Part shown: piece after piece, positions 1-12,316 of the stretch
Layout of the letters: the number at the start of each line of letters is the position of its first letter
How positions within the stretch are numbered: position 1 is the first letter of the stretch
Origin: a virus
Lineage: Duplodnaviria > Heunggongvirae > Uroviricota > Caudoviricetes
Length of the DNA: 12,316 nt
IMG/VR virus record: IMGVR_UViG_2563366829_000021
Location: 1-12,316 of that record
Reading direction: 5' to 3' (one strand)
The notes under the pieces: generated by a model
What the model saw: only the letters and a program-made list of their open reading frames with translations
Told to the model about the DNA's origin: nothing
Databases searched by the model: none
Position numbers and translations under genes: made by a program

Positions 1-585
1 AAGCAGAAAAAGCTTATTATGCTTCCATCGGAAACGATGATCTGGCAGCCTGAGTTCACAGATAAAACACTCTCCAGGAAACCCGGGGCGGTTCACGTCG
101 ACGTGCTTACCAATCAGTTCGAGGTTCTTCACCTTGTCAGGCCATTTAATTTTTTTGAGGATTGTCTCTATCGAATCCTCGTTCATGTTCATGATGGTCG
201 ATGACAGATCAAAGCCGCTAAGCGTAGTGCGCCAGATTTTCGGCCACTCGCGGATTGGCTTAAGGCTCCCATCGTCGTTGAGGATGTCGATCACGTCCAT
301 CTGGTCGATCTCCACCAGGCGCATGAGAACGTAATCAGCACTGACGCGCATTCGTTTGTTGCGCTCCTCCATCAACTCGGCAATCCGTTTCTGAATGCGT
401 TCATCGCGCATCATGACACTGGCTTTAACTGCCGCTGTATTTGGGGAGAATCCTGCGTTAATCGCAGCCTGAGTCTGATTTTCAGGCGTTTTGATGTATG
501 ACTGGCAATAAGCCTCCTGCATTGCTGTTAGTGGCTTAAATTGCGTTGATTTGCGTTTATAGGTTTTAGGTTCAGCAGGCATCAT
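1..585 (-). CDS. Phage terminase small subunit (Terminase_2-like), partial: C-terminal end lies beyond the window start
   Basis: Manual minus-strand translation from the ATG at 585..583 runs with no stop to position 1 (MMPAEPKTYKRKSTQFKPLTAMQEAYCQSYIKTPENQTQAAINAGFSPNTAAVKASVMMRDERIQKRIAELMEERNKRMRVSADYVLMRLVEIDQ...). The Q-A-Y-C-Q-x-Y ... TQAAIxAG(F/Y)S ... RIQxRIAELxEER pattern matches terminase small subunit N-terminal HTH domains from memory. Absent from the ORF track because no stop lies in the window. GGTGG SD-like element 5-9 nt upstream. Confidence 0.7.
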   Translation of the reverse strand, partial: MMPAEPKTYKRKSTQFKPLTAMQEAYCQSYIKTPENQTQAAINAGFSPNTAAVKASVMMRDERIQKRIAELMEERNKRMRVSADYVLMRLVEIDQMDVIDILNDDGSLKPIREWPKIWRTTLSGFDLSSTIMNMNEDSIETILKKIKWPDKVKNLELIGKHVDVNRPGFPGECFICELRLPDHRFRWKHNKLFLL

Positions 586-592
586 AACCACC

Positions 593-624
593 GTGGTAAT
601 AGTTACCGTTGTGGTAATAGTACC
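593..624. repeat. Two direct copies of GTGGTAATAGT(T)ACC (593-607 and 611-624) in the leader of the terminase small-subunit gene
   Basis: Read directly from the sequence. Each copy is itself a near-palindrome (GGTAA-TAG-TTACC) and uses the same GGTAA/TTACC half-sites as the operator palindrome, but in inverted order. Confidence 0.45.
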
Positions 625-628
625 ATGC

Positions 629-654
629 AAAATAAAGCCGCCATAGTTGGCGGC
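629..654 (-). terminator. Rho-independent terminator for leftward (minus-strand) transcription, downstream of CDS 660..872
   Basis: Stem GCCGCC (637-642) / GGCGGC (649-654) with a 6-nt loop; on the minus-strand RNA it is followed by UUUAUUUUG. No U-tract in the plus orientation. Confidence 0.55.
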
Positions 655-659
655 AGTAT

Positions 660-872
660 TCAAAGTCCATCAAATTCATCGTAAAAACTCTCGTCAAGAT
701 ACCCTTTCCATTTACCGCGAATGAAAATTACATCCTCGCCGCAAGGGTGCTGACTGTCGATAACTATATCCCTCCTGGCGCAACCATACTTATGCATGAG
801 AAATTTAACCTCTTTCGGAAAATTAGCTGAGTTATCTCTCATATCTTCAAGGTCGTAGCGTATTTTTGGCAT
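660..872 (-). CDS. Hypothetical phage protein (70 aa)
   Basis: ORF-track ORF 660..893. Start placed at the internal ATG 872 (MPKIRYDLEDMRDN...) because a GAAGGTG SD-like sequence lies 5-10 nt upstream and the upstream gene stops at 890. Same strand as the operon. Confidence 0.5.
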   Translation of the reverse strand: MPKIRYDLEDMRDNSANFPKEVKFLMHKYGCARRDIVIDSQHPCGEDVIFIRGKWKGYLDESFYDEFDGL

Positions 873-889
873 AACACCTTCGTGACATG

Positions 890-1231
890 TCACACTATTA
901 ATTTCGTTTCATGCCAGCCTTTGGTCACCCAGCATTGCGAGTCACCATTACACGGGCATGAATTAACTGGAACTCTCTCGCCGCACTTACCGCAACGTTT
1001 TCTGCTGATCGATTTTATACGCCCGCGCACCCGGGCATCATCCTGGCGGATCAGCAGCGCGATGTACTCGGCCATTTCATAGGGATCTCGACCAGGGCGC
1101 CGGGCGGCGCAGTTCCGCTCCAGCATTTCAATTTCCTGAGCATCAAGCACAATCTCCAGCTTACGCACACCAGATGCAGCTTGTCTGGCTCTCTGAGCGG
1201 CTTTGCGCTCTGCTGCTGATTTAGCCATCAA
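890..1231 (-). CDS. Hypothetical small basic protein with C-terminal Cys cluster (CGKCG...CPCNG), possible zinc-binding
   Basis: 113-aa ORF, tandem ATG start at 1231/1228 with AGGT 8 nt upstream; overlaps the stop of the upstream gene (1221-1223). No family recognised. Confidence 0.5.
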   Translation of the reverse strand: MMAKSAAERKAAQRARQAASGVRKLEIVLDAQEIEMLERNCAARRPGRDPYEMAEYIALLIRQDDARVRGRIKSISRKRCGKCGERVPVNSCPCNGDSQCWVTKGWHETKLIV

Positions 1232-1502
1232 TATTTACCTTTATCGCGTATACCTTTACCGGTTTATCGCCGAAGTGGGGATGTGTGATTGTCTTGATTT
1301 CATATCCGTCATACGGGACGTCAATTCTACGACTGGAGTCGTCGCGCTTCGGATATCCCTTTGTGATAATCAGTCGGTCATAATCCCTGAACATAATTCG
1401 CTTATTCCAGTAGTCATTACACAGGCGATACTCTTCCGTTTTCTCTCCGCGAATGATGGCATCGAAGTATTCACCTTTAACGGCTAGTTGCAGGTTAGCC
1501 AC
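1221..1502 (-). CDS. ASCH/PUA-like domain phage protein (93 aa from a GTG start)
   Basis: Motif VKGEYFDAIIRGEKTEEYR resembles the ASCH-domain signature as I recall it. GTG start at 1502..1500 preceded by AGGAGG (1513-1508) with a 5-nt spacer. The longer ORF-track version (start 1631) would overlap the upstream gene by more than 100 nt. Confidence 0.5.
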   Translation of the reverse strand: MANLQLAVKGEYFDAIIRGEKTEEYRLCNDYWNKRIMFRDYDRLIITKGYPKRDDSSRRIDVPYDGYEIKTITHPHFGDKPVKVYAIKVNIDG

Positions 1503-2022
1503 GATTAACCTCCTGCTGCGGTGCTGCTGGCAGTGGCATCCAGTGGGTAATACTACCTGGATATAAACTCTTTGCTGGCCCCCAGTAGCCATCTGTATTA
1601 ACACGCATAACCTCACAGCCATCAAAACCATCAGTTACAAGAACGTATTCATAAGGTTCCGGCATCCTTTCGCTTACCGGAATCCAACCATCCGGAGTTG
1701 CCGGAGAGTTGCCATTTATATCGAAGTTTGGCTCTGCGTCCTGAACCAGGAGGATGTAACCATTCTTGGCAGTATCAAGTTCTAACGCCTCGGTGACGGT
1801 ACCGAAATAGCGATTACCTAAATCAGCATCACAAGTGCTTACATCAATGGAAACTTCCATCCCTTCGATTAATTCTGGCAAGTTGTAAGTTTGGCTTACA
1901 GGCTCTGCTTCCAGTGATGCCAGTGCAATTCGTGCCAGTTCCATTTGTTCGCCACGAGTAAGTCCGTTATCAAGCGGATTTTTAATGAATAATTCGATAC
2001 GTTCTTTGGTTATAGCGCTCAT
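1495..2022 (-). CDS. DUF551-family phage protein (175 aa)
   Basis: C-terminal W-I-P-V-S-E-R-M-P ... H-W-M-P-L-P pattern is typical of DUF551 as I recall it. ATG at 2022 with GGAGAG SD 8 nt upstream, 1 nt after the stop of the Ead-like gene. Confidence 0.6.
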   Translation of the reverse strand: MSAITKERIELFIKNPLDNGLTRGEQMELARIALASLEAEPVSQTYNLPELIEGMEVSIDVSTCDADLGNRYFGTVTEALELDTAKNGYILLVQDAEPNFDINGNSPATPDGWIPVSERMPEPYEYVLVTDGFDGCEVMRVNTDGYWGPAKSLYPGSITHWMPLPAAPQQEVNRG

Positions 2023-2023
2023 A

Positions 2024-2752
2024 TCACTCTCCTTTGATGCGAATGCCAGCGACGCGTGGCACATTAACTTCCACGATGCGCACAGTTGGTTTGTACATCT
2101 CAATCGCTGTCAGCCAGTCAGCGCCAGTCATGCGCTTTTCTGCATCGCCATTAGTCCACTTAACCGGTACACCAATAGCCTTCATCGCGATTTCTATTTC
2201 CCCGGCAATGGCGCTTTTTCCGCAACCAGTAAAACCAGAAACAACGACAAGAACTTCGCCTTTGGCTGGTTTTATTTCCCGCGCTTCCAGTTCTGCTATG
2301 CGCTTCTCTGATGCTTCAAGTAACGCCTGCTTATCGCGTAGCGCTTCTTCCAGTTCAGCAACATGGCACTCACTATCAATAAGGTTGTTCTCTGCGGCTT
2401 CCAGCTCAACACGCAGCTTCCCTACCGTTAGCGCAATATCCTCGTTCTCCTGATCGCGGCTTTTGATGTATTGCAGGTTTCTTTCCCGTTCATCCAGCAG
2501 TGCCAGCACGGTAGCTGGATTGGCTGCGGCGATGAATTCAGCATTGGCCTGCTGCTCCATTTGGAAATCTTCATAGAAACGGCTTTCTGGATGCGCTCCT
2601 TCAATTCTGCAAATGGGAATATATCCAGCAACTTCACGATGAATTAGTGCATCATCACCATCAAATCGGCCATCTCCATATTCGAGCGACCACTCGCCAC
2701 ACGTTGCTTTCTCTGCCGCCTCACGCAGTGCCTGATAGTCAATCTTGCTCAC
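2024..2752 (-). CDS. Ead/Ea22-like family protein (coiled-coil-rich, 242 aa)
   Basis: N-terminus MSKIDYQALREAAEKAT...GEW and a long Glu/Leu/Ala-rich coiled-coil segment resemble Ea22-like proteins of lambdoid prophages. GTG start at 2752 with AGGAGG 6 nt upstream; GTGA overlap with the upstream stop. Confidence 0.6.
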   Translation of the reverse strand: MSKIDYQALREAAEKATCGEWSLEYGDGRFDGDDALIHREVAGYIPICRIEGAHPESRFYEDFQMEQQANAEFIAAANPATVLALLDERERNLQYIKSRDQENEDIALTVGKLRVELEAAENNLIDSECHVAELEEALRDKQALLEASEKRIAELEAREIKPAKGEVLVVVSGFTGCGKSAIAGEIEIAMKAIGVPVKWTNGDAEKRMTGADWLTAIEMYKPTVRIVEVNVPRVAGIRIKGE

Positions 2753-3261
2753 TGGTTGCCTCCTTTGCGAAGCTGGGCGGCGATATCTTCGAGAACGCCA
2801 TCAGAGAATGAGCGGTCAAAATCGCCTTCCGGCGCATTAGCCATAAACTCAGTAGAGGTAAGAATCATCCGGGCAATATCCGCGGCGTTCTTCGCAGTAT
2901 CATCAATAAAACCAGCTTCCCAGGCAGCCAGCATTCTGTTCGCCACAAAGTAAGCGCCCTCCTTGCGTGCTTCAGTCTTCACTTCAGCCAGGAAAGCGTC
3001 GGTGGCTGGGGTTTCCGTGAAGTTGTCCTCCCAACCGTAGTACTCCTGACGACAGAAGTTATTAAATTCCTTCTCCGACTGTTTAAGCCCCGCATTCTCC
3101 GCCGCCAGCGCATTAGCACGCACCAGTTGCACTTCCAGTTGCGTTGCCAAATCGCTGATCAGCTTTGCCACACTGCGCATATCAACGGCACCACATTCTG
3201 CTTTCAGTTCCGAAGCCATCTCATGCCCGGCGGAAACTAACCCTTTGATATTACTTTCCAT
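2749..3261 (-). CDS. Hypothetical phage protein (170 aa)
   Basis: ORF with ATG at 3261 and AGGG SD 5 nt upstream; stop overlaps the start of the next gene. No family recognised. Confidence 0.55.
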   Translation of the reverse strand: MESNIKGLVSAGHEMASELKAECGAVDMRSVAKLISDLATQLEVQLVRANALAAENAGLKQSEKEFNNFCRQEYYGWEDNFTETPATDAFLAEVKTEARKEGAYFVANRMLAAWEAGFIDDTAKNAADIARMILTSTEFMANAPEGDFDRSFSDGVLEDIAAQLRKGGNQ

Positions 3262-3322
3262 CTTTACCCTCGCTTATCCACATAACTTATTGATTACATT
3301 GATAACTAAAAAGATCGTCGAT

Positions 3323-3667
3323 TTAGAACTCTTCGATGTTCCAGCCACCACCTGCTTTCTTTGGCTTAACCGTTACCCCGATGATTCGGAACGGATACTG
3401 ATCTGCGGCGACTTTGGTTTTCACCCTGGCGTCGTCGGTCCAGAAACCTTTCACTTCGTGCAGTTCCATCTCGCCGGTGGCGAGCATCACAGCGAAATCT
3501 GGCGTATAAAACGTGTTATCAGCTAACCGCAGCTTGATACCCTCGAACCGATACCAGGCGATTTCCCCTGCACGTTTACGCTGCTCAAGGTGCTGGCAAT
3601 ACGCAGATTCTGTTTTGTTCATCTGGCCTGTTTTGAGTCGACCAAGAGCCTGTATCTGTTTTCTCAT
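3323..3667 (-). CDS. DUF1064-like phage protein, possibly PD-(D/E)XK-fold nuclease
   Basis: 114-aa ORF; motif YTPDF...ELHEVKG...DDARVK is consistent with a D...E-x-K nuclease-like core and my recollection of DUF1064. ATG at 3667 sits directly downstream of a promoter-like element. Confidence 0.55.
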   Translation of the reverse strand: MRKQIQALGRLKTGQMNKTESAYCQHLEQRKRAGEIAWYRFEGIKLRLADNTFYTPDFAVMLATGEMELHEVKGFWTDDARVKTKVAADQYPFRIIGVTVKPKKAGGGWNIEEF

Positions 3668-3669
3668 GA

Positions 3670-3748
3670 TTTACCCCTGAGGTAATTAAAAACCACATAA
3701 GACACTAAATCAATAGATTTTAGAATATTTTATTACCCAGTAGGTAAT
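3670..3748 (-). promoter_or_regulatory. Internal promoter with two operator palindromes: ATTACC-CAGTA-GGTAAT (3732-3748) and TTTACC-CCTGA-GGTAAT (3670-3686) flanking a -35 TTGATT (plus 3708-3713) / 17 bp / -10 TTTAAT (plus 3685-3690), reading toward 3667
   Basis: Read from the minus strand: ATTACCTACTGGGTAAT-(18 nt)-TTGATT-(17 nt)-TTTAAT overlapping ATTACCTCAGGGGTAAA, then ATG. Same geometry as the PL-like promoter at 6768-6846. Confidence 0.5.
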
Positions 3749-3758
3749 CATCGAGACG

Positions 3759-3781
3759 TAAAAAAATGCGCTATCGCGCTG
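3759..3781 (-). terminator. Weak terminator-like element downstream of the P-like gene
   Basis: Short GC palindrome GCGC-GATA-GCGC on the minus-strand RNA followed by seven U. The stem is only 4-5 bp, so low confidence. Confidence 0.3.
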
Positions 3782-3784
3782 GTA

Positions 3785-4567
3785 TTACTTGATAAATCCT
3801 GCCGCCTTTCCCCGCCTGTATTCCTCCATCAGCCACTGCGCCGGTGTTATTCCCCCAAGGGTGGCGGCGTTAGGCATGCACCCGAAACTTCGCCCTGGTG
3901 GATGGTAAACGTCTCTCCCTGTGTCCGGAGGTGTACTCATGGGTTCTGGCTTTGCCTGTATGCTGATCACCGGATCGGGTATCTGCTGTCCGGAAGCCAC
4001 CTTTTTCGCCCAATCATCGAGCAGCCTGCGCGCGTGTTTCTCAACCTCAATCTCGCTAAGCTGGCGCTGATACATTGCACGGCGGGTATCACATACGACC
4101 CAGTACATAACCGGATGTCGCCACGGGAATCTTTCGGGACCACCAGGATATAAACTTTTTTCCTTGCTGTACCGGTGAAACTCCGCCATCACATCGTCAA
4201 TGGTGACGCCAAGAACCATCTTGCTGTCTTTGCACCACTTGATGAATTGCCCAGGCGACGGCCAGAACGGAGATTCACTGGCGCGGGCGTGGCGCATACC
4301 AGCGTTAACCTGTTCCATTGTTGTGATCCCATTCTCCAGAAACGCAAGCATCCATTGTTTTCGAAATTCGTTTAGCTTTCCTTGCTCGCTGATAGCAGCG
4401 ATGCTGCCTGGAAATGCAGCCTGTAACTGGACAAACATTTCGTTGAAAATTCTTGCAACCTGCTCCTTCTTTGCCCTTTCATCGTCAGCAGAAGCAACCG
4501 CCGTCGAGTGGTCATGCCCACCACGAAAGCGATCGTACTCATTAAGAAGTTCTGGAGTTGATTTCAT
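3785..4567 (-). CDS. Replication protein P-like (lambda P family, DnaB helicase loader)
   Basis: WMLAFLENGITTMEQVNAGMRHARASESPFWPSPGQFIKWC aligns almost residue-for-residue with the lambda P segment WVLAFRENGITTMEQVNAGMRVARRQNRPFLPSPGQFVAWC as I recall it. Start chosen at ATG 4567 (MKSTPELLNEYD, compare lambda MKNIAAQMVNFD) with GAGGTG SD upstream; overlaps the 3' end of the O-like gene. Confidence 0.8.
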   Translation of the reverse strand: MKSTPELLNEYDRFRGGHDHSTAVASADDERAKKEQVARIFNEMFVQLQAAFPGSIAAISEQGKLNEFRKQWMLAFLENGITTMEQVNAGMRHARASESPFWPSPGQFIKWCKDSKMVLGVTIDDVMAEFHRYSKEKSLYPGGPERFPWRHPVMYWVVCDTRRAMYQRQLSEIEVEKHARRLLDDWAKKVASGQQIPDPVISIQAKPEPMSTPPDTGRDVYHPPGRSFGCMPNAATLGGITPAQWLMEEYRRGKAAGFIK

Positions 4568-5375
4568 CCCACACCTCATCTATCCAGTCAGTGTTATGCC
4601 AGTCAAGGCTCTTTCTGACTTCACCTGATTTCTGTCTACAGAACTGGATGCGCCTTGCCAGCTTCTGCTCCCACTGTGCCTGATGGTATGCCTTACCCTC
4701 AGCCATCCAGTAAATTCTGAACTCTGCAAGTTCCTGTGCCGTTGGCAGACTGTCCAGGTAGATTCCCTGCAATGAGCTTTTCCGAAGAAAGTCATCTGAT
4801 GGCTGCCATTGTTCATGCATGACAAATTTACCTAATTGCCCTGGCCCACCAGGAGGAACAAAGTTATTCATCACGGCGTTGTTTGCGACGGGGTCATGAG
4901 GCACAGAATCCCCGGTTTTTGTCCTGCTCTCCCTCTCTTGGTTAAATGACTGGTTATATGACTGGTTCTGGATCCCGTTTTTGGGATCATTCAACATCCC
5001 GTTTTTGGGATCATTCAACATCCCGTTTTTGGGTATATTCCCGTTTTCGGTAACATTACCGTTTTCGGGTTCATTGCCCCCCTCCCGGTTGCCTTTAATG
5101 TTCCCGTTTTTGGTTATATTAAGAGAGAAAACCCGCACTCTTTTTGTCGCTCCCTTTCTCTCTCCGGTATCTGAAATAAGCCCCATTTTCATGAGCGATA
5201 TAAGCCCGGCCTGCACGGTTTTTTTATTCAGGCAAGTGTCTTTAACGAGGCGTTCTATGCTGGGGTAGCAGAGGTTATATTCATCGGCTCTGTCAGCCAT
5301 CGAGAGCAGTATGAGCTTTAATGATGAGCTACCTGGATCTGTCTCCCAGGCCCAATCTGTTGCATGTCTGCTCAT
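4542..5375 (-). CDS. Replication initiator, lambda-O-like: N-terminal winged-HTH DNA-binding domain, Asn/Gly-rich repeat linker, C-terminal domain
   Basis: 277-aa ORF directly upstream of the P-like gene. N-terminal LKLILLSMADRADEYNLCYPSIERLVKDTCLNKKTVQAGLISLMKMGLIS looks like a replication-initiator HTH. The central low-complexity linker is encoded by the tandem DNA repeats at 4973-5120. GGAG SD upstream of ATG 5375. Confidence 0.7.
   Translation of the reverse strand: MSRHATDWAWETDPGSSSLKLILLSMADRADEYNLCYPSIERLVKDTCLNKKTVQAGLISLMKMGLISDTGERKGATKRVRVFSLNITKNGNIKGNREGGNEPENGNVTENGNIPKNGMLNDPKNGMLNDPKNGIQNQSYNQSFNQERESRTKTGDSVPHDPVANNAVMNNFVPPGGPGQLGKFVMHEQWQPSDDFLRKSSLQGIYLDSLPTAQELAEFRIYWMAEGKAYHQAQWEQKLARRIQFCRQKSGEVRKSLDWHNTDWIDEVWDEINSRTS
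4973..5120. repeat. Iteron-like tandem repeat array inside the O-like gene (candidate origin of replication)
   Basis: Two exact 24-bp copies TCCCGTTTTTGGGATCATTCAACA (4973-4996, 4997-5020), then degenerate 18-bp units TCCCGTTTTTGGGTATAT, TCCCGTTTTCGGTAACAT, TACCGTTTTCGGGTTCAT and a further TTCCCGTTTTTGGTTATATT at 5101-5120. Each unit has a CCCG-T4/5-GGG dyad core. Confidence 0.6.
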
Positions 5376-5390
5376 GATTAATCTCCGCTA

Positions 5391-5591
5391 TCAGCTTGAG
5401 TGTTGTGGGGAGGAATTAATCATGATCTGCTTAATCTCTGCCCTGATGCGACGGTTTGATTCCATGGTGCACTCAGCACAGTGTCCGTTGTAAACCCAGC
5501 GTTCACTGTCATGTCCATGCTTACATGGTTTTCCGGTGTAGTAGCGTTTAAGTCCGCGCTTTGCGGCATCAATACGTGTAATGATTTCCAT
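5391..5591 (-). CDS. Small Cys/His-rich protein (C-K-H-G-H ... C-A-E-C), possible zinc-ribbon regulator at the cII-equivalent position
   Basis: ORF-track ORF 5391..5654; start uncertain (ATG at 5591 with AGGG 8 nt upstream preferred; 5627 and 5654 are alternatives that would run into the terminator region). No homolog recognised. Confidence 0.4.
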   Translation of the reverse strand: MEIITRIDAAKRGLKRYYTGKPCKHGHDSERWVYNGHCAECTMESNRRIRAEIKQIMINSSPQHSS

Positions 5592-5700
5592 GGTAAGCCC
5601 TGTTATTAGTATTGGGATTACGGTCATTTTGTGCTGACACAAAAAAAAGATCAACCAGATTTGGTTTTTTGTTACCTTTTAGGTGCGAATAGATATGAAA

Positions 5701-5720
5701 AGACCGCCGGATGGCGGTCT
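5701..5720 (-). terminator. Hairpin terminator immediately downstream of the Cro-like gene (tR1-like position)
   Basis: Perfect 8-bp stem AGACCGCC / GGCGGTCT with a 4-nt loop; minus-strand RNA continues UUUCAUAUCUAUU (interrupted U-tract). Confidence 0.5.
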
Positions 5721-5741
5721 ACAGAGGGTTGTGGCTGGATA

Positions 5742-5972
5742 TCATGAGTAGAAGAAGTATGCCAGTTCTGCTTTTGAGCGCAGCCATTGTCTTGTTTTAC
5801 AGGCTTTAAAAAGCCCATTCATCAATACCTTACCTGGCATTTTGCGCTTACCTGTTAAGTGAGTCTGGATATAGTGACTCGTCGTTCCGGCTTCCTGTGC
5901 GAAGGCTTCACGCTCATCCGGAGTAAGTGCAAGCCAGTGCTTTTTGAAATCGAAATGTCCGTTATCGCTCAT
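5742..5972 (-). CDS. Cro-like small DNA-binding regulator (76 aa)
   Basis: Divergent from the repressor across an operator-rich intergenic region; sequence LTPDEREAFAQEAGTTSHYIQTHLTGKRKMPGKVL looks like a short HTH protein. Position and orientation match cro. Confidence 0.55.
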   Translation of the reverse strand: MSDNGHFDFKKHWLALTPDEREAFAQEAGTTSHYIQTHLTGKRKMPGKVLMNGLFKACKTRQWLRSKAELAYFFYS

Positions 5973-6126
5973 AGCTATTGCCTGATATTTATTTCAGATA
6001 ATAAATATTCACCCATAAGGTAACAAAAATCAAGGATAGTTACCTATGGGGTGCATTTACCTGTTGGGTAATATTGCTTTAAATTGAATCATCTACTGAT
6101 TCATATATGAGGCGATTTTCCAGAAA
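5973..6126. promoter_or_regulatory. OR-like divergent promoter/operator region between the Cro-like and repressor genes
   Basis: Strong palindrome TTTACC-TGTTG-GGTAAT at 6056-6072; two degenerate mirror-image copies TCACC-CATAA-GGTAAC (6009-6024) and TTACC-TATGG-GGTGC (6040-6054) flanking a -35-like TTGATT (minus, plus coords 6028-6033). Candidate leftward -10 TATTAT (plus 5998-6003). Individual promoter hexamers are tentative. Confidence 0.6.
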
Positions 6127-6711
6127 ATGAAAAGTATCCAGGACGTCCGCAGGCAAAATCTCAACGACTTGATCGACCGTGAATTCAATGGTGTTCAGAC
6201 GCGGATGGCAGAAAAACTTGGAACTCAGGCAAATCTGGTAAACCGCTGGGCTCTTGGCAAGAAGGTTATCGGCGACCAGGTTGCGCGAAAAATTGAAGCT
6301 GCCGCCAATAAACCCCGTAACTGGCTTGATATCGATCGCTCGCTTTCTCAGGAAGGTTTTCAGCCTGTCGGCCCAAGCGACATTGGTCAGCTGGCGGCTC
6401 ACAACCTGGAACGCTGGATGAGCGAAAGCCGCGACCTTTCAACGCAGGGAAAACTTCACCGCGCATCCGGCGTCGCCCAGGTGACAATCAGTCGCCTGTT
6501 AAACAATGAGGTCAGCGTTTCCATTTCCACCCTGGAGAATGTTGCATCCGCATTCGGGCGTCACGGATATGAACTACTGATTCACCCGCACGACCCTGCG
6601 ACTATCAACTATGACCGCTCACGCTACGCATTGTTACCCGAAACCGAGAAAGCAAAGATCGAAAGTTACATTGAATTTGTCATCAACCAGAACGAAAAAA
6701 GCAAACAATAA
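6127..6711 (+). CDS. Prophage repressor (CI-equivalent) with two tandem XRE-type HTH domains and no recognisable S24 peptidase domain
   Basis: 194 aa. HTH-like segment 1 around residues 10-70 (NLNDLIDREFNGVQTRMAEKLGTQANLVNRWALGKKVIGDQVARKIEAAANKPRNWL); HTH-like segment 2 around residues 95-150 (LSTQGKLHRASGVAQVTISRLLNNEVSVSISTLENVASAFG). The C-terminus shows no LexA-type Ala-Gly/Ser/Lys pattern. Followed by a strong terminator. Confidence 0.7.
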   Translation: MKSIQDVRRQNLNDLIDREFNGVQTRMAEKLGTQANLVNRWALGKKVIGDQVARKIEAAANKPRNWLDIDRSLSQEGFQPVGPSDIGQLAAHNLERWMSESRDLSTQGKLHRASGVAQVTISRLLNNEVSVSISTLENVASAFGRHGYELLIHPHDPATINYDRSRYALLPETEKAKIESYIEFVINQNEKSKQ

Positions 6712-6731
6712 AACTATAGTTTTCAGTAAGT

Positions 6732-6757
6732 AAGCCGCCTCATGGCGGCTTTTTTAT
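6732..6757 (+). terminator. Rho-independent terminator after the repressor gene
   Basis: Stem AAGCCGCC (6732-6739) / GGCGGCTT (6744-6751) with loop TCAT, followed by TTTTTATT. No U-tract in the opposite orientation. Confidence 0.7.
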
Positions 6758-6767
6758 TGCCAGATAG

Positions 6768-6846
6768 ATTACCTTACGGGTAATTTTTTTAACTCATATC
6801 TATTGACACCAAACCAAATAAGCATAATTATTACCCCAACGGTAAC
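6768..6846 (+). promoter_or_regulatory. PL-like early promoter with two operator palindromes: ATTACC-TTACG-GGTAAT (6768-6784) and ATTACC-CCAAC-GGTAAC (6830-6846); -35 TTGACA (6803-6808), 17-bp spacer, -10 AATTAT (6826-6831)
   Basis: Consensus -35 hexamer; upstream operator centred about 30 bp upstream of the -35; downstream operator overlaps the last 2 nt of the -10 and the predicted start site. Confidence 0.6.
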
Positions 6847-6864
6847 AGACCGAGGTAACAAGTT

Positions 6865-7017
6865 ATGCAGTGGAAAATCATCAACGGTTGGTACTGCGTT
6901 ACTGCATGCGGATTCATGAGCTGGAAGTTCCGCACCTTACAGGAAGGCATTAAGTGGGCTTTCGTCAGCAAAGAAGCTCGCGATGTAGCCAACGATAACG
7001 AGATATGGGAGGGCTGA
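6865..7017 (+). CDS. Small hypothetical protein (50 aa), first ORF of the rightward early operon
   Basis: Not in the ORF track (under 60 aa). ATG 6865 with GAGG 9 nt upstream; translation MQWKIINGWYCVTACGFMSWKFRTLQEGIKWAFVSKEARDVANDNEIWEG; stop 2 nt before the next ATG. Not Arg-rich, so not obviously N-like. Confidence 0.4.
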   Translation: MQWKIINGWYCVTACGFMSWKFRTLQEGIKWAFVSKEARDVANDNEIWEG

Positions 7018-7019
7018 TA

Positions 7020-7319
7020 ATGAACGTTAATCAGCAGAAAAATCTTCAAAAAATCATGCTGGCATTCGACAAGGACTACCGCCTGTCAGAACAGCTATAT
7101 GACCGACAAGTTGAACTGATTGAGAGCATCCGACTTCATCAACTGTCCTCAACTTTCGACGTTGTAACAGGCAAAGGCGTTCGTCAGGAAGTGCTGGAGG
7201 CTGCTAAAGACAGCCCTGAGTTCGAAGAACTGATGGATGCCTACCGGCGCGAGGCAATGGCAATTATAGCGCGCTGGGATCTGGCGGATCAGCTTGATGG
7301 ACAGAGGGACGCGGCATGA
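7020..7319 (+). CDS. Hypothetical early protein (99 aa)
   Basis: Internal ATG 7020 preceded by GGGAGGG; ATGA stop/start overlap with the exonuclease gene. No family recognised. Confidence 0.55.
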   Translation: MNVNQQKNLQKIMLAFDKDYRLSEQLYDRQVELIESIRLHQLSSTFDVVTGKGVRQEVLEAAKDSPEFEELMDAYRREAMAIIARWDLADQLDGQRDAA

Positions 7320-8137
7320 AACCGGGAATTTATTTCGACATCAGCAACGAAGACTACCACGCCGGTGACGGCGTGAGTAAGTCGCAACTGGACATGGTTG
7401 CCAAGAATCCGGCGCTTCTTAAATGGGTTCAGGCAGCACCAGAAGACGAAGAGAAAAAGTCTGCACTGGATATGGGAACCGCATTGCACTGTCTGCTTCT
7501 GGAGCCTGGAGAATTCGACAAACGCTTCATTGTTTCACCGAAGTTCGATCGTCGGACGAAACAAGGTAAAGCTGACGAAGAAGCATTTCTTCGTGATGTA
7601 GCGGATATGGGGATTACGGTACTTGATGCCGAGCAGTGGCGGAAACTGGAGCTGATGCGTGATAGCGCAATGGCTCACCCGGCGGCACGCTGGATGCTGG
7701 AAGCACCTGGTTACTGCGAAGCATCAATGTACTGGAACGATGAAGAGACGGGTGAGTTGTGCCGAATTCGTCCAGACAAATGGCTGAACGAGCACAACGT
7801 GATCGTCGACGTGAAAAAGGTTGCAGATATGGACCGTTTTGCACGTCACATCGAGGAATTCCGCTACCACGTGCAGGACGCAATGTACCGCGAAGGCGCA
7901 ATGAGGGTTACTGGTCAGCCGCATGGTTTTTTCTTTCTTGCCGTGAGCGAAAGCATTGATTGTGGTCGGTATCCGGTACGCGTGTTCGGGCTGGATGCGC
8001 CGGATGTCGATGCCGGGCACGCTCTGTTCCGCCGGGATCTGAATACCTATCACGAATGCCGCATCAGCGATGAATGGGGCGGCGTGGAAATTATTAAACG
8101 CCCTGAGTGGGCACGCAAACAGGATATGTACGTATGA
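7316..8137 (+). CDS. PD-(D/E)XK-family exonuclease (RecB/Cas4-like core), recombination partner of RecT
   Basis: 273 aa. Motifs RIRPD ... IVDVKKV (D/E-x-K) and YHVQDAMY (QxxxY) are typical of RecB-family nuclease cores. Sits immediately upstream of, and translationally coupled (ATGA) to, a RecT/Bet gene. Confidence 0.7.
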   Translation: MKPGIYFDISNEDYHAGDGVSKSQLDMVAKNPALLKWVQAAPEDEEKKSALDMGTALHCLLLEPGEFDKRFIVSPKFDRRTKQGKADEEAFLRDVADMGITVLDAEQWRKLELMRDSAMAHPAARWMLEAPGYCEASMYWNDEETGELCRIRPDKWLNEHNVIVDVKKVADMDRFARHIEEFRYHVQDAMYREGAMRVTGQPHGFFFLAVSESIDCGRYPVRVFGLDAPDVDAGHALFRRDLNTYHECRISDEWGGVEIIKRPEWARKQDMYV

Positions 8138-9051
8138 GCAACGAAATTGCAATCACCAATGATGTGTTGGCTATTCGGGGAATCGATGAAGTTACATGGA
8201 GCGCTCTGAAAAACAGTATTTACCCTGGGGCAAAAGATGAATCGGTAATGATGGCAGTCGATTACTGCCGGGCGCGTCAACTCGATCCTCTTCTTAAGCC
8301 GGTACACCTGGTACCAATGAGTGTTAAAGACTCGAAGAGTGGAAAGAATGAATGGCGCGACGTGGTCATGCCTGGCATTGGACTTTATCGCATTCAGGCC
8401 TACCGTTCCGGCGATTACGCAGGCGCTAATGAACCTGAGTTCGGTCCAGATGTAACACAAACGCTTTCAGGCGTGGAGGTTACCTTCCCTCAGTGGTGTA
8501 AGTACACCGTCAGCAAGCGAATGGCAAGCGGGGAAATCGTAGAGTTTAGCGCCAAAGAATACTGGATTGAGAACTATGCAACTGGGGGGCGTGACACATC
8601 GGCACCAAATGCCATGTGGAAAAAGCGCCCTTATGCGCAGTTGGCAAAATGCGCAGAGGCACAGGCATTACGTAAAGCATGGCCGGAGATTGGTCAACAA
8701 GCCACAGCTGAGGAAATGGAAGGTAAATATATCGACTCACCTGACATTATTGAACGTGACGTAACTCCAAGAAGTCAGGCAAAGCACGGCACAGCATCCA
8801 GCATGAACAGTCTGATCAACGCTAAACCAGTGAAAAAGCATGATGAGCAAACGCGTAAAGCGGATAGCCGTGATCCAGAAGAAATGCTGATGGCCTTTAC
8901 CAGCGCAGCGATGAATTACAGCACTGTCTCCGAACTGGATAAGGCTTACAAATACATTGCACAAAAACTTTCAGATGATGACGAACTGCTGGCAAAAGCC
9001 ACCGACGTTTACAGCGTTCGTCGGGAAGAATTAAACGAAACATCTATGTAA
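8134..9051 (+). CDS. RecT/Bet-family single-strand annealing protein
   Basis: 305 aa from ATG 8134. Layout and segments (ALKNSIYPGAKDESVMMAVDYCRARQLDPLLKPVHLVP; WKKRPYAQLAKCAEAQALRKAWPE) parallel lambda Bet / RecT as I recall them. Confidence 0.8.
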   Translation: MSNEIAITNDVLAIRGIDEVTWSALKNSIYPGAKDESVMMAVDYCRARQLDPLLKPVHLVPMSVKDSKSGKNEWRDVVMPGIGLYRIQAYRSGDYAGANEPEFGPDVTQTLSGVEVTFPQWCKYTVSKRMASGEIVEFSAKEYWIENYATGGRDTSAPNAMWKKRPYAQLAKCAEAQALRKAWPEIGQQATAEEMEGKYIDSPDIIERDVTPRSQAKHGTASSMNSLINAKPVKKHDEQTRKADSRDPEEMLMAFTSAAMNYSTVSELDKAYKYIAQKLSDDDELLAKATDVYSVRREELNETSM

Positions 9052-9100
9052 CCACCACCGCGGCGCCACGCGCGCCGCACTGCAACCAAGAGAGGTATTT

Positions 9101-9349
9101 ATGAAAGGTGCATTAGGTAAGAAGGAACTCCTGGCGGTGGTGCCACTGTCATGGAGCACTATCGACCGTATGGAGCGCGCAGGGGAATTTCCTAAACGCT
9201 GGTATATCACCGATAAACGCTGCGCATGGAACCGTGACGAAGTTGAGCGTTGGCTTGATGAACGTCAGGCAGCAAGCCCGGCAGAGTTCCAGGGTAAAAA
9301 GCCTCCTGTTCAGCAACGTGTATATCGTCCTGTGAGCAACGCTGCATGA
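9101..9349 (+). CDS. AlpA-family phage transcriptional regulator / excisionase (Xis-like)
   Basis: 82 aa; LSWSTIDRMERAGEFPKRWYITDKRCAWNRDEVERWLDER matches the AlpA-type HTH pattern (STI-R...GEFPK...W...EVE.WL.ER). GAGG SD 5 nt upstream of the ATG. Confidence 0.75.
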   Translation: MKGALGKKELLAVVPLSWSTIDRMERAGEFPKRWYITDKRCAWNRDEVERWLDERQAASPAEFQGKKPPVQQRVYRPVSNAA

Positions 9350-9374
9350 GTGCGCTGCTAAGGCACTGGAGCAA

Positions 9375-9458
9375 ATGGTCAGGATGGTACTTATTCCTGG
9401 CCTCTGTTTCAGCATGGCTTTATCTGCTGGCATTAATTTTCAGAGAGGGTTGGATTAA
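9375..9458 (+). CDS. Possible 27-aa hydrophobic micro-peptide (MVRMVLIPGLCFSMALSAGINFQRGLD)
   Basis: Short ORF not in the track; GGAG 3-4 nt upstream of the ATG (short spacing); ends exactly where the next ORF starts. Speculative. Confidence 0.2.
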   Translation: MVRMVLIPGLCFSMALSAGINFQRGLD

Positions 9459-9758
9459 GTGAGAAAGTTAAGCCGACTTGAAAAATATCACATGAATAAG
9501 GTTTCAATGCGCAGTCCGTCAAAGATTGTCGCCGTTACTCCTGCGGCGATAGAGATCGAAAAACGCGCGATTGAAAGAGAGAAAAAAGGGCAATTCCGCA
9601 TTGCCGCTCACCTTTGGCTTCAGTGTATGGATGTTGCTTCTGGTGATGTTGAACGTGCAAGGATCGCGGTTCGCAGGGACCAATGTATCACAAAAGGTAA
9701 CGGCCTTCGCCGTGGCGACTATAGCGGCATAGGATGTTGTGGGGTGGTTTATGACTAA
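9459..9758 (+). CDS. Hypothetical protein (99 aa, GTG start)
   Basis: ORF co-oriented with the operon; GAGGG about 10 nt upstream of GTG 9459; 3' end overlaps the methyltransferase start by 8 nt. No family recognised. Confidence 0.4.
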   Translation: MRKLSRLEKYHMNKVSMRSPSKIVAVTPAAIEIEKRAIEREKKGQFRIAAHLWLQCMDVASGDVERARIAVRRDQCITKGNGLRRGDYSGIGCCGVVYD

Positions 9759-10401
9759 GAAATACACACTAATCTATGCAGATCCACCCTGGGTATACCG
9801 GGACAAAGCCGCAGATGGTAATCGCGGTGCCGGTTTTAAATATCCAGTTATGAGTGTGCTGGATATCTGCCGCCTTCCTGTGTGGGATTTTACCGCTGAA
9901 AACTGTCTGTTGGCCATGTGGTGGGTGCCAACACAACCACTCGAAGCACTAAAAGTTGTTGAAGCCTGGGTATTTCGTCTGATGACGATGAAGGGCTTCA
10001 CGTGGATAAAATGTGGTAGTCGACAACCAGATAAACTGGTTATGGGTATGGGACACATGACTCGCGCCAATAGTGAAGATTGCCTGTTTGCGGTAAAGGG
10101 AAAACTACCTACGCGCATTAATGCAGGGATCGTTCAGTCATTTACCGCACCGCGGCTTGAGCACTCAAGAAAACCAGATATCGTTCGTGAAAAACTTGTG
10201 CAATTGTTAGGCGATGTTTCTCGCATTGAACTGTTCGCCCGCCAGACGTCTCATGGCTTCGATGTTTGGGGTAATCAGTGCGAAGACCCGGCAGTGCAAC
10301 TACACCCTGGATACGCGTTGGATATTGGCGGATTAACAAATGCATTCAGCAATGCTCAGGTGTCACCAATAGACAACCAGGGGCGGGAGCGTGCAGCATG
10401 A
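9751..10401 (+). CDS. MT-A70-family DNA N6-adenine methyltransferase (DPPW motif), orphan
   Basis: N-terminal [14 protein letters not shown] contains the catalytic DPPW tetrad. Start at ATG 9751 (GTG 9739 is an in-frame alternative). Stop overlaps the phosphatase start (ATGA). No restriction endonuclease partner seen in the window. Confidence 0.8.
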
Positions 10402-11057
10402 ACCTATATCAACGCATCAATGGCGCTGACTGGTGCAATATCTTCGTCGTCGGCGATCTGCATGGGTGCTACACGCTGCTGATGAACGAACTCGACAAAG
10501 TTTCATTCGACCCGGCGCGCGATTTACTTATTTCCGTTGGTGACCTTGTTGACCGCGGCGCTGAAAACGTCGAATGCCTGGATTTGATTACTATGCCGTG
10601 GTTCCGAGCTGTTCGTGGCAACCATGAGCAGATGATGCTGGATGCACTGGTCAACGGCGGAAGTTTCGGACATTGGATGTCAAACGGCGGTGGATGGTGG
10701 CACCAACTTGATTCTGAGCAGGATGTGCAACTCAAATACCTTCTGCCAAAGATTACCAACCTCCCGATGATTATCGAACTGGTTACCGGCAATAAGAAGG
10801 TCGTCATCTGTCACGCAGACTACCCGCACAACGAATACGCATTCGATAAGCCAGTACCAGAAGAAATGGTGATATGGAATCGTGAGCGGGTTAGCGACGC
10901 GCAGGACGGTATTGTCTCGGAGATAACCGGTGCCGATTTGTTCATCTTCGGTCATACGCCAGCACATCACCCACTGGTGTATGCAAACCAGATGTACATC
11001 GACACCGGCGCAGTGTTCTGCGGAAATCTGACGCTTACCAAAGTCCAGGAAGGATAG
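10398..11057 (+). CDS. Ser/Thr protein phosphatase, lambda-PPase-like (calcineurin-like metallophosphoesterase)
   Basis: 219 aa from ATG 10398 with PPP-family motifs GDLHG, GDLVDRG, GNHE and a C-terminal GH. The ORF-track version carries an upstream extension that I reject. Confidence 0.85.
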
Positions 11058-11059
11058 AA

Positions 11060-12316
11060 TTATTTATTACTGTCTTCCATCCACCTCTCAAACTTCGACG
11101 GGGAGAACGGAATCAGATCCGTATGCTCCCCGTCAATCCATGAATCAATCATATCGGCCCACTGCTGCAACATGTAGGCGCGCTGTCTGGCGTATTCCGC
11201 TTTGTTATATACGGCGCGCACACCTTTCTGCTCATGTGCCAGAGCCTTTTCAATCCAGTCTGAAGGATAACCAGCCTCATGCAACAACGTACTGGCTGTA
11301 CGGCGCATATCGTGTACGGTGAAGCCCTGAATATGCTCACCATCTTCATTTATTATTTTCACCGTTCTGTCGATCAGAGAGTTCAGCGCGGCATTAGATA
11401 ATGGCTTCCGGAAATTGTAACGACCAGGAACCAGATATTCACTTCCACCAGCGCACATCTGCAACCCAACCAATATATCCTGTGCCTGTTTAGGCAGGTA
11501 AATAACGTGCGCCCGGCTTCCCTTCATGCGGTCTGAAGGAATTGTCCATGTCCATTTTTTAAAATCTATTTCATCCCACGTTGCATTGGTGAATTCGCCT
11601 TTACGAACCATAGTGATAAGCACCAGCTTTAAAGCCATTTTCATAGTGCCCATAGCACCAATGGCATCCAGCGTGCGGAAGAACAGGCCAATTTCTTCTG
11701 GTGTCAGTGTTCGCTCTCGTGGTTTAAATATGGCGATAGACGAAGGTTTAATGTCAGCCGCAGGATTAAACAAACCATGACCACGGTCATTGGCGTGACG
11801 GTATACGCTGCTGATGCTCTCCCTGGCCTGTACTGCTGTTGCCCGACCACCGCGTTCGACAATCCGGTCACACAAATCACGAACCATCGATGTGGTAATT
11901 TCAGCCATCATTTTGTTACCAAGAACAGGAAGTATGTCACGGTCGATCACCGCCTGCTTCATTGCGCGGGTACTGTCAGCCAGGATGACGTGTTTCATAT
12001 AACTGTCGGTATGTACCGCAAACGTCTCGGCACCACGAATCTTTTTGATACCGTCACGTTTAGCCGCAGCCGGTGACTGGCCTGCTTTAAGCAGCTTCTT
12101 TGCAGCAATCAGTTCTTCTCGCGCTTCTGCCAGGCTGATACCGTCACGCCCATACTGCCCGATTACCAGTGTTTCGCGGCGACCGTTGATACGGTAGTCA
12201 TAGCGAAACGAGACCGTGCCTGACGTAAGCACAGCTACATACAGCCCGTCACGATCGGAGACCTTGTACAGTTTGTCCTGCGGCTTGAGGTTTTTTAATT
12301 TTGTATCGGTAAGCAC
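11060..12316 (-). CDS. Tyrosine recombinase / phage integrase, P4-like family with N-terminal DUF4102 arm-binding domain; first codon (GTG) sits at the window edge
   Basis: 418 aa. N-terminal LTDTKLKNLKPQDKLYKVSDRDGLYVAVLTSG is typical of P4-like integrases; C-terminal catalytic region includes HDMRRT and LAHEQKGVRAVY (candidate catalytic Tyr). Convergent with the phosphatase gene with a 2-nt gap. Confidence 0.9.
   Translation of the reverse strand: MLTDTKLKNLKPQDKLYKVSDRDGLYVAVLTSGTVSFRYDYRINGRRETLVIGQYGRDGISLAEAREELIAAKKLLKAGQSPAAAKRDGIKKIRGAETFAVHTDSYMKHVILADSTRAMKQAVIDRDILPVLGNKMMAEITTSMVRDLCDRIVERGGRATAVQARESISSVYRHANDRGHGLFNPAADIKPSSIAIFKPRERTLTPEEIGLFFRTLDAIGAMGTMKMALKLVLITMVRKGEFTNATWDEIDFKKWTWTIPSDRMKGSRAHVIYLPKQAQDILVGLQMCAGGSEYLVPGRYNFRKPLSNAALNSLIDRTVKIINEDGEHIQGFTVHDMRRTASTLLHEAGYPSDWIEKALAHEQKGVRAVYNKAEYARQRAYMLQQWADMIDSWIDGEHTDLIPFSPSKFERWMEDSNK

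Follow-up and report, generated by a model that had tools for sequence, protein, structure and literature searches.

With good probability, the repeat array described here acts in cis as the origin of replication for a temperate phage of the phiV10/epsilon15 type that is inserted beside guaA in Escherichia coli. The array is nested within the stretch of the initiator gene that codes for the linker, just as ori-lambda is nested within gene O. An initial annotation of the window (the whole stretch of DNA that we analyzed, 12,316 nucleotides) had proposed an iteron array and a probable prophage origin at this place. The proposal gains support from the conservation of the repeats at the DNA level in relatives and from the presence of a lambda-P-like gene; binding, bending, unwinding, helicase recruitment and the origin activity itself are what we infer from these comparisons. 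Because iterons inside the initiator gene are the classical origin design of lambda and other lambdoid phages, the kind of element is already known. In the present case, it would occur in an unstudied initiator family, and its most novel aspect is a family-wide element of GAAYC-type 12/13-mers that adjoins the iterons.

Positions 91-12316 of the window match, at 100%, a prophage in E. coli MS 196-1 that is bounded by guaA and an integrase gene at one end and by terminase genes at the other. The early region of this prophage is of the phiV10/epsilon15-like (Uetakevirus) type, with the gene order repressor, cro-like gene, small ORF, initiator, P; the small ORF and the cro-like gene lie upstream of the initiator gene on the same strand, whereas the two-HTH repressor is divergent. 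The P-like gene named in the initial annotation is indeed a member of the lambda P family (Table 1), and it follows the initiator gene directly, overlapping the initiator stop codon. Near-identical initiator genes are present in phiV10, phiv142-3, PAS61 and EC.W1-9, and the initiator module was detected in 424 of 5426 complete E. coli genomes. Two circular records of 41 kb that are labelled as plasmids are whole phage genomes with the module, and plasmid replicon typing of these returned none. No origin is annotated in the phiV10 record, the one record that we inspected in this respect.

The initiator belongs to the PHROG family phrog_1032, 'replication initiation protein' (E=2e-102), and combines all three traits of phage initiators of this type, namely HTH_36 at the N-terminus, a C-terminal domain like that of DnaT, and a P-like gene as partner. 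Its RefSeq label is 'DnaT-like ssDNA-binding domain-containing protein'; the database names 'primosomal protein' and 'DnaT' that are attached to this gene describe one domain only. In 65 genomes from other species, the HTH_36 domain is conserved with an identity of 36-87%, and the N-terminal domain family comprises 3,775 clusters at 50% identity in public data. The designation "O-like", given in the initial annotation, is apt for the role of the protein but not for its membership by Pfam: the protein consists of HTH_36 and DnaT domains and had no match to Phage_rep_O (PF04492), the family that lambda O hit with 5.7e-36 in the same kind of Pfam scan. Aligned by hhalign with lambda O, the N-domain profile, which is thin, gave a probability of 4%, and a PDB sequence search with this profile returned nothing significant; a Rep_3-type domain was likewise without a Pfam match in the initiator. 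The AlphaFold2 model, built from a shallow alignment, is poor as a whole (pLDDT 33.7), and the linker is poorly predicted. The C-terminal tail of the initiator exists in two versions, of which that of the window appears to travel together with the start of its P gene because this stretch matches other phages than the rest of the gene does. Such co-travel is consistent with a contact between the two partners.

The core CCCGTTTTYGG, with at most one mismatch, occurs six times in the 12.3 kb of the window, always within 4974-5114; the number expected by chance is 0.47, and none of 200 shuffled sequences reached six. Coordinates are given on the plus strand, the initiator gene being on the minus strand. 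The 24-bp unit ATCCCGTTTTTGGGATCATTCAAC is present in two exact copies (4972-4995 and 4996-5019), just as had been annotated, and in a partial third that extends to 5033 (TRF, 2.6 copies, 100% match). The accompanying description of at least four degenerate 18-bp units has to be modified: three units at 18-bp spacing begin at 5020, 5038 and 5056, and the fourth, at 5101-5124, is separated from them rather than consecutive. The translation of ORF 4542-5375 on the minus strand bears out that the array is inside a coding sequence and encodes the Asn/Gly-rich linker, NGNIKGNREGGNEPENGNVTENGNIPKNGMLNDPKNGMLNDPKNG, between the HTH_36 and DnaT coding regions. On the gene strand, the unit reads AAY-N3-(C/A)CC(A/G)AAAACGG(G/T), and the best units form the dyad ATCCC-AAAAAC-GGGAT; the structure of a head (AAY), 3 nt and a 12-nt core is taken from the family profile. 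Single-strand folding of the array is no better than that of shuffles (z = -1.3), so a hairpin-based origin is not supported. No DnaA boxes were found near the array, the only matches in the window being those at 3274 and 8615, at chance level.

Table 1. Coordinates of the candidate origin, the genes that carry and adjoin it, and nearby sites (window positions, plus-strand numbering; repeat sequences of the iterons, 12-mers and purine-rich tract are written on the gene strand).
Feature	Position	Strand	Basis
Iteron 1, isolated: AATATA-ACCAAAAACGGG	5103..5120	-	repeat search, core count
Iteron 2: AATGAA-CCCGAAAACGGT	5058..5075	-	repeat search, core count
Iteron 3: AATGTT-ACCGAAAACGGG	5040..5057	-	repeat search, core count
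Iteron 4: AATATA-CCCAAAAACGGG	5022..5039	-	repeat search, core count
Iteron 5: AATGAT-CCCAAAAACGGG, dyad ATCCC-N6-GGGAT, in exact 24-bp repeat	4998..5015	-	TRF, core count; 0 variable sites among 53 distinct relatives
Iteron 6, last: AATGAT-CCCAAAAACGGG	4974..4991	-	TRF, core count; 0 variable sites among 53 distinct relatives
GAAYC-type 12-mer triple: CAGAACCAGTCAT-ATAACCAGTCAT-TTAACC, directly after last iteron	4940..4970	-	TRF 12-bp period; family pattern
Purine-rich tract AAGAGAGGGAGAGCAGGACAAAAA, in position of A-rich tract of relatives and lambda	4916..4939	-	sequence; G-containing, not AT-rich
9-bp inverted repeat AGAGAGAAA / TTTCTCTCT, 24-nt spacer	5122-5130 / 5155-5163	.	exact in window
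Replication initiator gene, 277 aa: HTH_36 N-domain, repeat-encoded linker, DnaT-like C-domain	4542..5375	-	ORF/translation, Pfam, PHROG, PDB
HTH_36 winged-helix domain coding region (aa 18-67), presumed iteron reader	5175..5324	-	Pfam E=2e-10
DnaT-like C-terminal domain coding region (aa 184-250)	4626..4826	-	Pfam DnaT E=1e-14; PDB DnaT C-domain chains 6aep, 4ou6, 9zbt, E=3e-19
Lambda-P-like helicase-loader gene	3785..4567	-	Pfam Phage_lambda_P E=4e-53; phrog_109 'P-like helicase loader' E=1e-87; RefSeq 'replication protein P'
Promoter-like site	6026-5998		
Terminator-like site	5720-5701		

Distant homologues were collected by tblastn of the N-domain against phage genomes and by a scan of one genome per species. 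The resulting sample of about 80 loci, with N-domains 28-87% identical, covers several proteobacterial classes, with Enterobacterales, Vibrio, Pseudoalteromonas, Marinomonas, Acinetobacter, Burkholderia, sphingomonads and Desulfovibrionaceae represented. Because the family statistics take in many related Acinetobacter loci, these are not independent of each other. In almost all of these loci, a repeat array with the related core CCCAAAWWYGGG is found at the same gene position (nt ~270-460). The phage homologues that we examined, with N-domains 43-58% identical, all possess this array and core: Edwardsiella GF-2, Vibrio Her, Acinetobacter AB1 and AP22, PPompW and Burkholderia Bcep176.

The iterons are adjoined by a second repeated element. 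The direct repeat ATGACTGGTT, which had been annotated as a flank of the array, is present twice (4946-4955 and 4958-4967; TRF 12-bp period, 2.4 copies, 4939-4967), but it is not simply a flank and belongs to a GAAYC 12/13-mer element that recurs across the family. The strict pattern RAAYC-N7/8-RAAYC-N7/8-DAAYC occurs at the expected gene position in 46 of 72 homologous loci compared to a single match in 430 kb elsewhere, and a looser anchor places a GAAYC element in 55 loci. The start of the element is at +6 from the last core in 32 of 50 loci, which is the exact position of the AAY head of a further iteron. With a usual distance of 25 nt between them, the first and the third unit fall in different reading frames, and in Vibrio phage Her, one and the same 11-mer, GAACCAGTCAT, is translated once as QNQS and once as EPVI. 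Furthermore, the element is retained in lineages whose iterons differ entirely, and it persists whatever the C-terminal domain and whatever the neighbouring loader or helicase gene. A DnaT domain could be detected in just two of the proteins, that of the window and that of PPompW. The DnaT domain as the sole reader of the GAAYC repeats was considered and rejected, most homologues with the element being without a detectable DnaT domain.

Across the 55 anchored homologues, a set dominated by low-GC Acinetobacter, the GC content dips to 0.27 and the fraction of A rises up to 0.5 at +20 to +50, immediately beyond the GAAYC element. Beside the iterons of the window itself, the GC content is 0.375-0.475 (in 40-nt intervals), that is, a weak dip with no strongly AT-rich segment. 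In our interpretation, the GAAYC element is probably the segment of the origin at which DNA is unwound or the helicase is loaded.

The lack of a clear AT-rich unwinding region beside the array of the window is compatible with a different use of the same repeats, namely that the initiator binds them chiefly for regulatory purposes (autorepression or a roadblock to transcription within the operon, handcuffing copy control, or titration and exclusion of related phages), with replication starting elsewhere in the prophage. In iteron plasmids, the same sites serve both control and initiation, and the repeats of the window are located inside a transcribed gene. However, the array agrees with ori-lambda in arrangement, polarity and position within the gene, a conserved element invariably comes after it in a constant register, the dip in GC content is family-wide, and the window contains just two further TRF arrays, both short (19-23 bp). 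We therefore regard a mainly regulatory role as unlikely.

In the window, the six units are all read in the same frame, and their translation is a repetitive Asn/Gly-rich peptide; from the window alone, selection on the DNA and selection on the protein therefore cannot be told apart. The same is expected of a slippage-prone tandem repeat that has no function in cis and encodes a flexible linker, and the variation in copy number among near-identical relatives, which is as free as in any tandem repeat, points in the same direction. More than 100 E. coli homologues at >90% identity have lengths between 263 and 311 aa. If the alternative C-terminal tail is set aside, the differences in length correspond to whole repeat units, with two to eight copies of the 24-bp unit, one to three of the 18-bp unit and two or three of the 12-bp unit in ten aligned length variants. 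In a set of viral contigs, the 24-bp unit is present in one to six copies. The scan of viral contigs yielded near-identical loci only and is informative on polymorphism, not on diversity. The linker variants that were counted by eye have at least five cores each.

Among 53 distinct alleles of the same length, 84 of 740 nt are variable, mostly synonymously in the two folded domains, but a segment of 83 nt (4950-5032), which spans iterons 4-6 together with the first 12-mer, contains none of these sites. Among the close relatives, the spacer GNREGG (5076-5089), which separates iteron 1 from iteron 2, forms a hot spot of amino-acid change. Because concerted evolution of tandem repeats could contribute to the invariance of the repeats among close relatives, we consider this invariance to be supportive only.

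Among the distant homologues, 41 of 123 core spacings are not multiples of 3 (17, 22, 25 and 38 nt are common), and two or three reading frames are used in 19 of the 33 loci that have three or more cores. Translation of the core gives PKNG, (T/S)QKR or VPKTE, and the same mixture is seen in the linkers of the family representatives. Because the same core is read in different frames, it is the DNA that is conserved and not the peptide. The initial annotation had named, as the observation that would speak against an origin, a linker preserved by other codons without conservation of the DNA repeat; we observed the opposite, a DNA core that is kept while the peptide changes. In 71 distant loci, the density of the core is 8.8 per kb at gene nt 241-520 and 0.33 per kb elsewhere, a 26-fold enrichment. 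Moreover, 57% and 65% of the units have complementary bases at the two positions on either side of the core, compared to 31% and 42% in shuffled sequences (z ~7, which overstates the significance because the units are not phylogenetically independent); such covariation of the flanks as a dyad is what a site for a symmetric dimer would predict. Although the poor AlphaFold2 prediction of the linker, in a model that is poor throughout, would be in keeping with a flexible peptide, a repeat maintained for its coding capacity alone appears very unlikely in view of the use of all three frames with different peptides, the covarying arms, the enrichment at one gene position and the constant register with the GAAYC element downstream, as well as the distinct repeat that each diverged initiator lineage has at this spot.

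Initiators that are about 30% identical have wholly different repeats at the same place, namely GGGGCAGGAGCTGCCCC in Stx2a_F403, seven copies of CACCCCCGCAGGAAATG in Pseudomonas phi2 and CCCCGCAGATTCTGCAC in Aeromonas 51, and further initiators at this level of identity also have repeats of their own there, GGTAGTGGCAnAnAGCAACC in mEp021 and CCTGTGCC...CACAGG in ZF40. These lineage-specific repeats fit a lineage-specific recognition of iterons by their initiators. Although A-tract repeats attract nucleoid-associated proteins, the repeat sequence changes along with the divergence of HTH_36 across lineages and hosts while the neighbouring genes differ, which makes binding by something else than the initiator that the repeats help to encode, for example a nucleoid protein of the host or a different early protein of the phage, the least probable of the explanations considered here.

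Taking into account both repeated elements, we tentatively suggest a two-part origin in HTH_36 initiator genes, a generalization that we consider possible but still rather doubtful. Under this model, lineage-specific iterons would set the specificity, and a constant series of at least three GAAYC 12/13-mers, in exact register after the last iteron, would represent an undescribed sequence-specific unwinding or helicase-loading site that is shared by E. coli, Pseudomonas, Aeromonas, Acinetobacter, Burkholderia, sphingomonads and Desulfovibrio independently of the iteron, C-domain or loader. By analogy, one strand of the element might be engaged by an oligomer of the initiator, as plasmid Rep proteins engage 13-mers, or else the element might be recognised by a conserved host replication factor.

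A sequence of events for the proposed origin can be outlined, with all its steps modelled on lambda O/P and plasmid Rep proteins. Upon derepression, early transcription of the rightward type (from the minus strand here) would produce the initiator and the P-like loader. Dimers of the HTH_36 N-domain would then bind the six dyad A-tract iterons (AAY-N3-CCC-A5C-GGG) over about 150 bp and form a bent nucleoprotein complex, and this complex would open the adjoining triple of GAAYC 12-mers and the purine-rich tract (4916-4970). The DnaT-like C-domain, together with the partner-specific tail, would bring P-DnaB and may hold the single-stranded DNA, resulting in the loading of the host helicase.

The 9-bp inverted repeat, which had also been annotated as a flank of the array, is exact in the window but is not kept beyond the closest homologue, and in 3 of 53 close relatives one of its arms has changed with no compensating change in the other. 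The arms encode the conserved GERK and VFSL of the wing of the winged helix. Inverted repeats of 9 bp with loops of 3-40 nt are not rare in the window, which contains 8 of these compared to about 1.9 in mononucleotide shuffles (with a maximum of 9 in the shuffles). Thus, we rejected the inverted repeat as a functional part of the origin, and it is probably a coding coincidence.

The literature, searched by topic and by the literal repeat sequences, yielded no description of an origin for an initiator of the phiV10 type or the HTH_36 type and no replication experiment on this origin or on a homologous one. The initiator module is common, and its N-domain family includes replication types of Stx phages. 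For a gene that databases call "primosomal protein/DnaT", recognition of an origin would provide a concrete site for studies of marker frequency, incompatibility and exclusion in phiV10-type phages, and it would also explain the length polymorphism of the protein. The GAAYC element offers a testable handle on the opening of DNA by a winged-helix initiator without a classical AT-rich tract.

The closest known counterpart is ori-lambda, located in gene O, where four iterons and an AT-rich region support formation of the O-some and P-dependent recruitment of DnaB. We used lambda as a control and found its annotated iterons at the same relative gene position and in the same polarity, followed on the sense strand by an A-rich tract. 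The lambda ori arrangement that the initial annotation had recognised is thereby confirmed in relative position, polarity and the P-family gene downstream: in both cases, the iterons occupy the middle of the initiator gene, where the linker is encoded, and the loader gene is next. The iterons themselves are clearly related in form, each being a dyad with an A-tract at its center (ATCCCTCAAAACGAGGGA in lambda and ATCCCAAAAACGGGAT in the window). Nevertheless, the units differ, as had been noted, the TCCC...GGGA arms being 3 bp closer together in the window; because the arms are 3 bp further apart in lambda, the specificity of the iterons appears to be distinct from that of lambda. In addition, the window has six iterons whereas lambda has four, and in place of the plain AT-rich tract of lambda it has three GAAYC 12-mers and a G-containing purine tract. 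The initiators differ as well, that of the window having an HTH_36 rather than a Phage_rep_O N-domain and a DnaT-like C-domain.

Origins inside O-type genes are also those of P22 (gene 18), phi80 and 82, and of the Stx phages, which have six iterons. With these lambdoid origins, the window shares the general design, the sequence and number of the iterons being specific to each lineage. The lambdoid origins that have been studied experimentally have initiators of the lambda O type, in contrast to the HTH_36 group to which the initiator of the window belongs. For Stx phages, O-ori complexes are described in a published report (PMC7466680).

Similarities extend to iteron plasmids and to DnaT. The window resembles the plasmids in the combination of a winged-helix initiator, direct repeats and adjacent short tandem 12/13-mers, but it is without a Rep_3-type domain and without a nearby DnaA box, and its origin would be inside the initiator ORF. 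In the plasmid origins (RK2, F, pPS10), Rep binds the double-stranded iterons and one strand of a 13-mer unwinding element. The C-terminal domain of the initiator matches the ssDNA-binding domain of E. coli DnaT (E=3e-19), whereas its N-terminal half is an HTH_36 DNA-binding domain and not the DnaT N-domain. Binding of Rep to single-stranded DNA of the unwinding element is described in a further source (PMC10602881).

Finally, DopC/DopE is a bacterial gene pair domesticated from the O/P genes of lambdoid phages (Brezellec et al. 2017, PMC5509034), with which the window shares HTH_36, a C-terminal DnaT motif and a P-like protein that follows. A link between the N-terminus of O and HTH_36, detected by HHpred, has been reported in the same study (PMC5509034), so that a remote homology of the initiator to lambda O is possible. 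For dopC, no iteron-like sequences were reported, and it was concluded that the gene is no longer an origin (PMC5509034). Unlike dopC, the gene in the window has a full iteron array and resides in a prophage, and the comparison suggests that the helicase-handling pair DopC/DopE of bacteria derives from such phages after loss of the iterons.

Among E. coli homologues of the initiator that are otherwise >90% identical, the final ~30 aa come in two unrelated versions. In the window, this tail and the start of the gene for the lambda-P-like helicase loader (window 4542-4640) match phages of the TL-2011b/ZX5/HEMP4 type, and the remainder of the initiator gene matches phiV10-type phages. The boundary is a mosaic joint, located where the DnaT-like domain ends, and suggests a partner-specific contact with the P-like loader.

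The family defined by the N-terminal domain of the initiator is large: clustering at 50% identity, a threshold of E<=1e-3 gives 3,775 clusters and the stricter threshold of E<=1e-10 gives 567. In many representative proteins of this family, the linker mixes the motifs PKNG, QKR(N/D) and VPKTE, a pattern that is the footprint, at the protein level, of a single DNA core read in three frames. Iterons 1 and 2 are separated by a spacer (window 5076-5089, encoding the peptide GNREGG) that is a hot spot for nonsynonymous polymorphism among near-identical relatives (R/L, E/D and G/C/S/V/D/R/W); the adjoining iteron cores are invariant in these relatives.

Two terminator-like sites were detected on the strand antisense to the initiator gene (see table). 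In both, the hairpin is formed by GGGAT and ATCCC arms contributed by neighbouring iterons and is followed by GTTTTT. These sites probably arise as a side effect of the iteron dyads, but they could stop antisense transcription. The perfect DnaA box located ~1.7 kb away from the iterons is at the chance level, given that the window contains 2 relaxed DnaA-box matches vs 1.2 expected.

Short sequence elements in the window and their context
Element	Position	Strand	Context	Source
Perfect DnaA box TTATCCACA	3274-3282	+	Short gap between DUF1064 gene and next ORF	
Short tandem repeat GCCAGTCATGC x2.2	2113-2135		Overlap of ead/Ea22-like and DUF551 coding regions	
Terminator-like hairpin + T-run	4982-5001	+	Antisense to initiator gene	Terminator scan
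Terminator-like hairpin + T-run	5006-5025	+	Antisense to initiator gene	Terminator scan

The replication module of the window type is also present in two circular records of 41,027 bp each, NZ_CP079771.1 (pHL15EC-2) and NZ_CP079768.1, which are labelled as plasmids. Each is an entire phiV10-like phage genome that includes integrase, terminase and lysis genes. Plasmid replicon typing of these two records yielded no type. Both probably represent phage DNA in an excised or episomal state.

The gene pair of the window (3785-5375), which encodes an HTH_36-DnaT_C protein and a lambda-P-like protein, shares its design with the bacterial DopC/DopE pair, for which iterons have been reported to be absent (PMC5509034). 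Phages of the window type, rather than lambda itself, may have been the source from which DopC/DopE was domesticated. Edwardsiella phage GF-2 combines the HTH_36 N-terminal domain, CCCAAAATTGGG iterons and the GAAYC element, a set of three GAAYC-headed 12/13-mers, with the downstream stretch GAGAATTCTGACGAATCCTCAGAC (gene nt ~425-450), which is nearly equal to the right arm of ori-lambda, GAGAATTCTGGCGAATCCTCTGAC (lambda 666-690). This near-match suggests modular recombination inside the phage origin.
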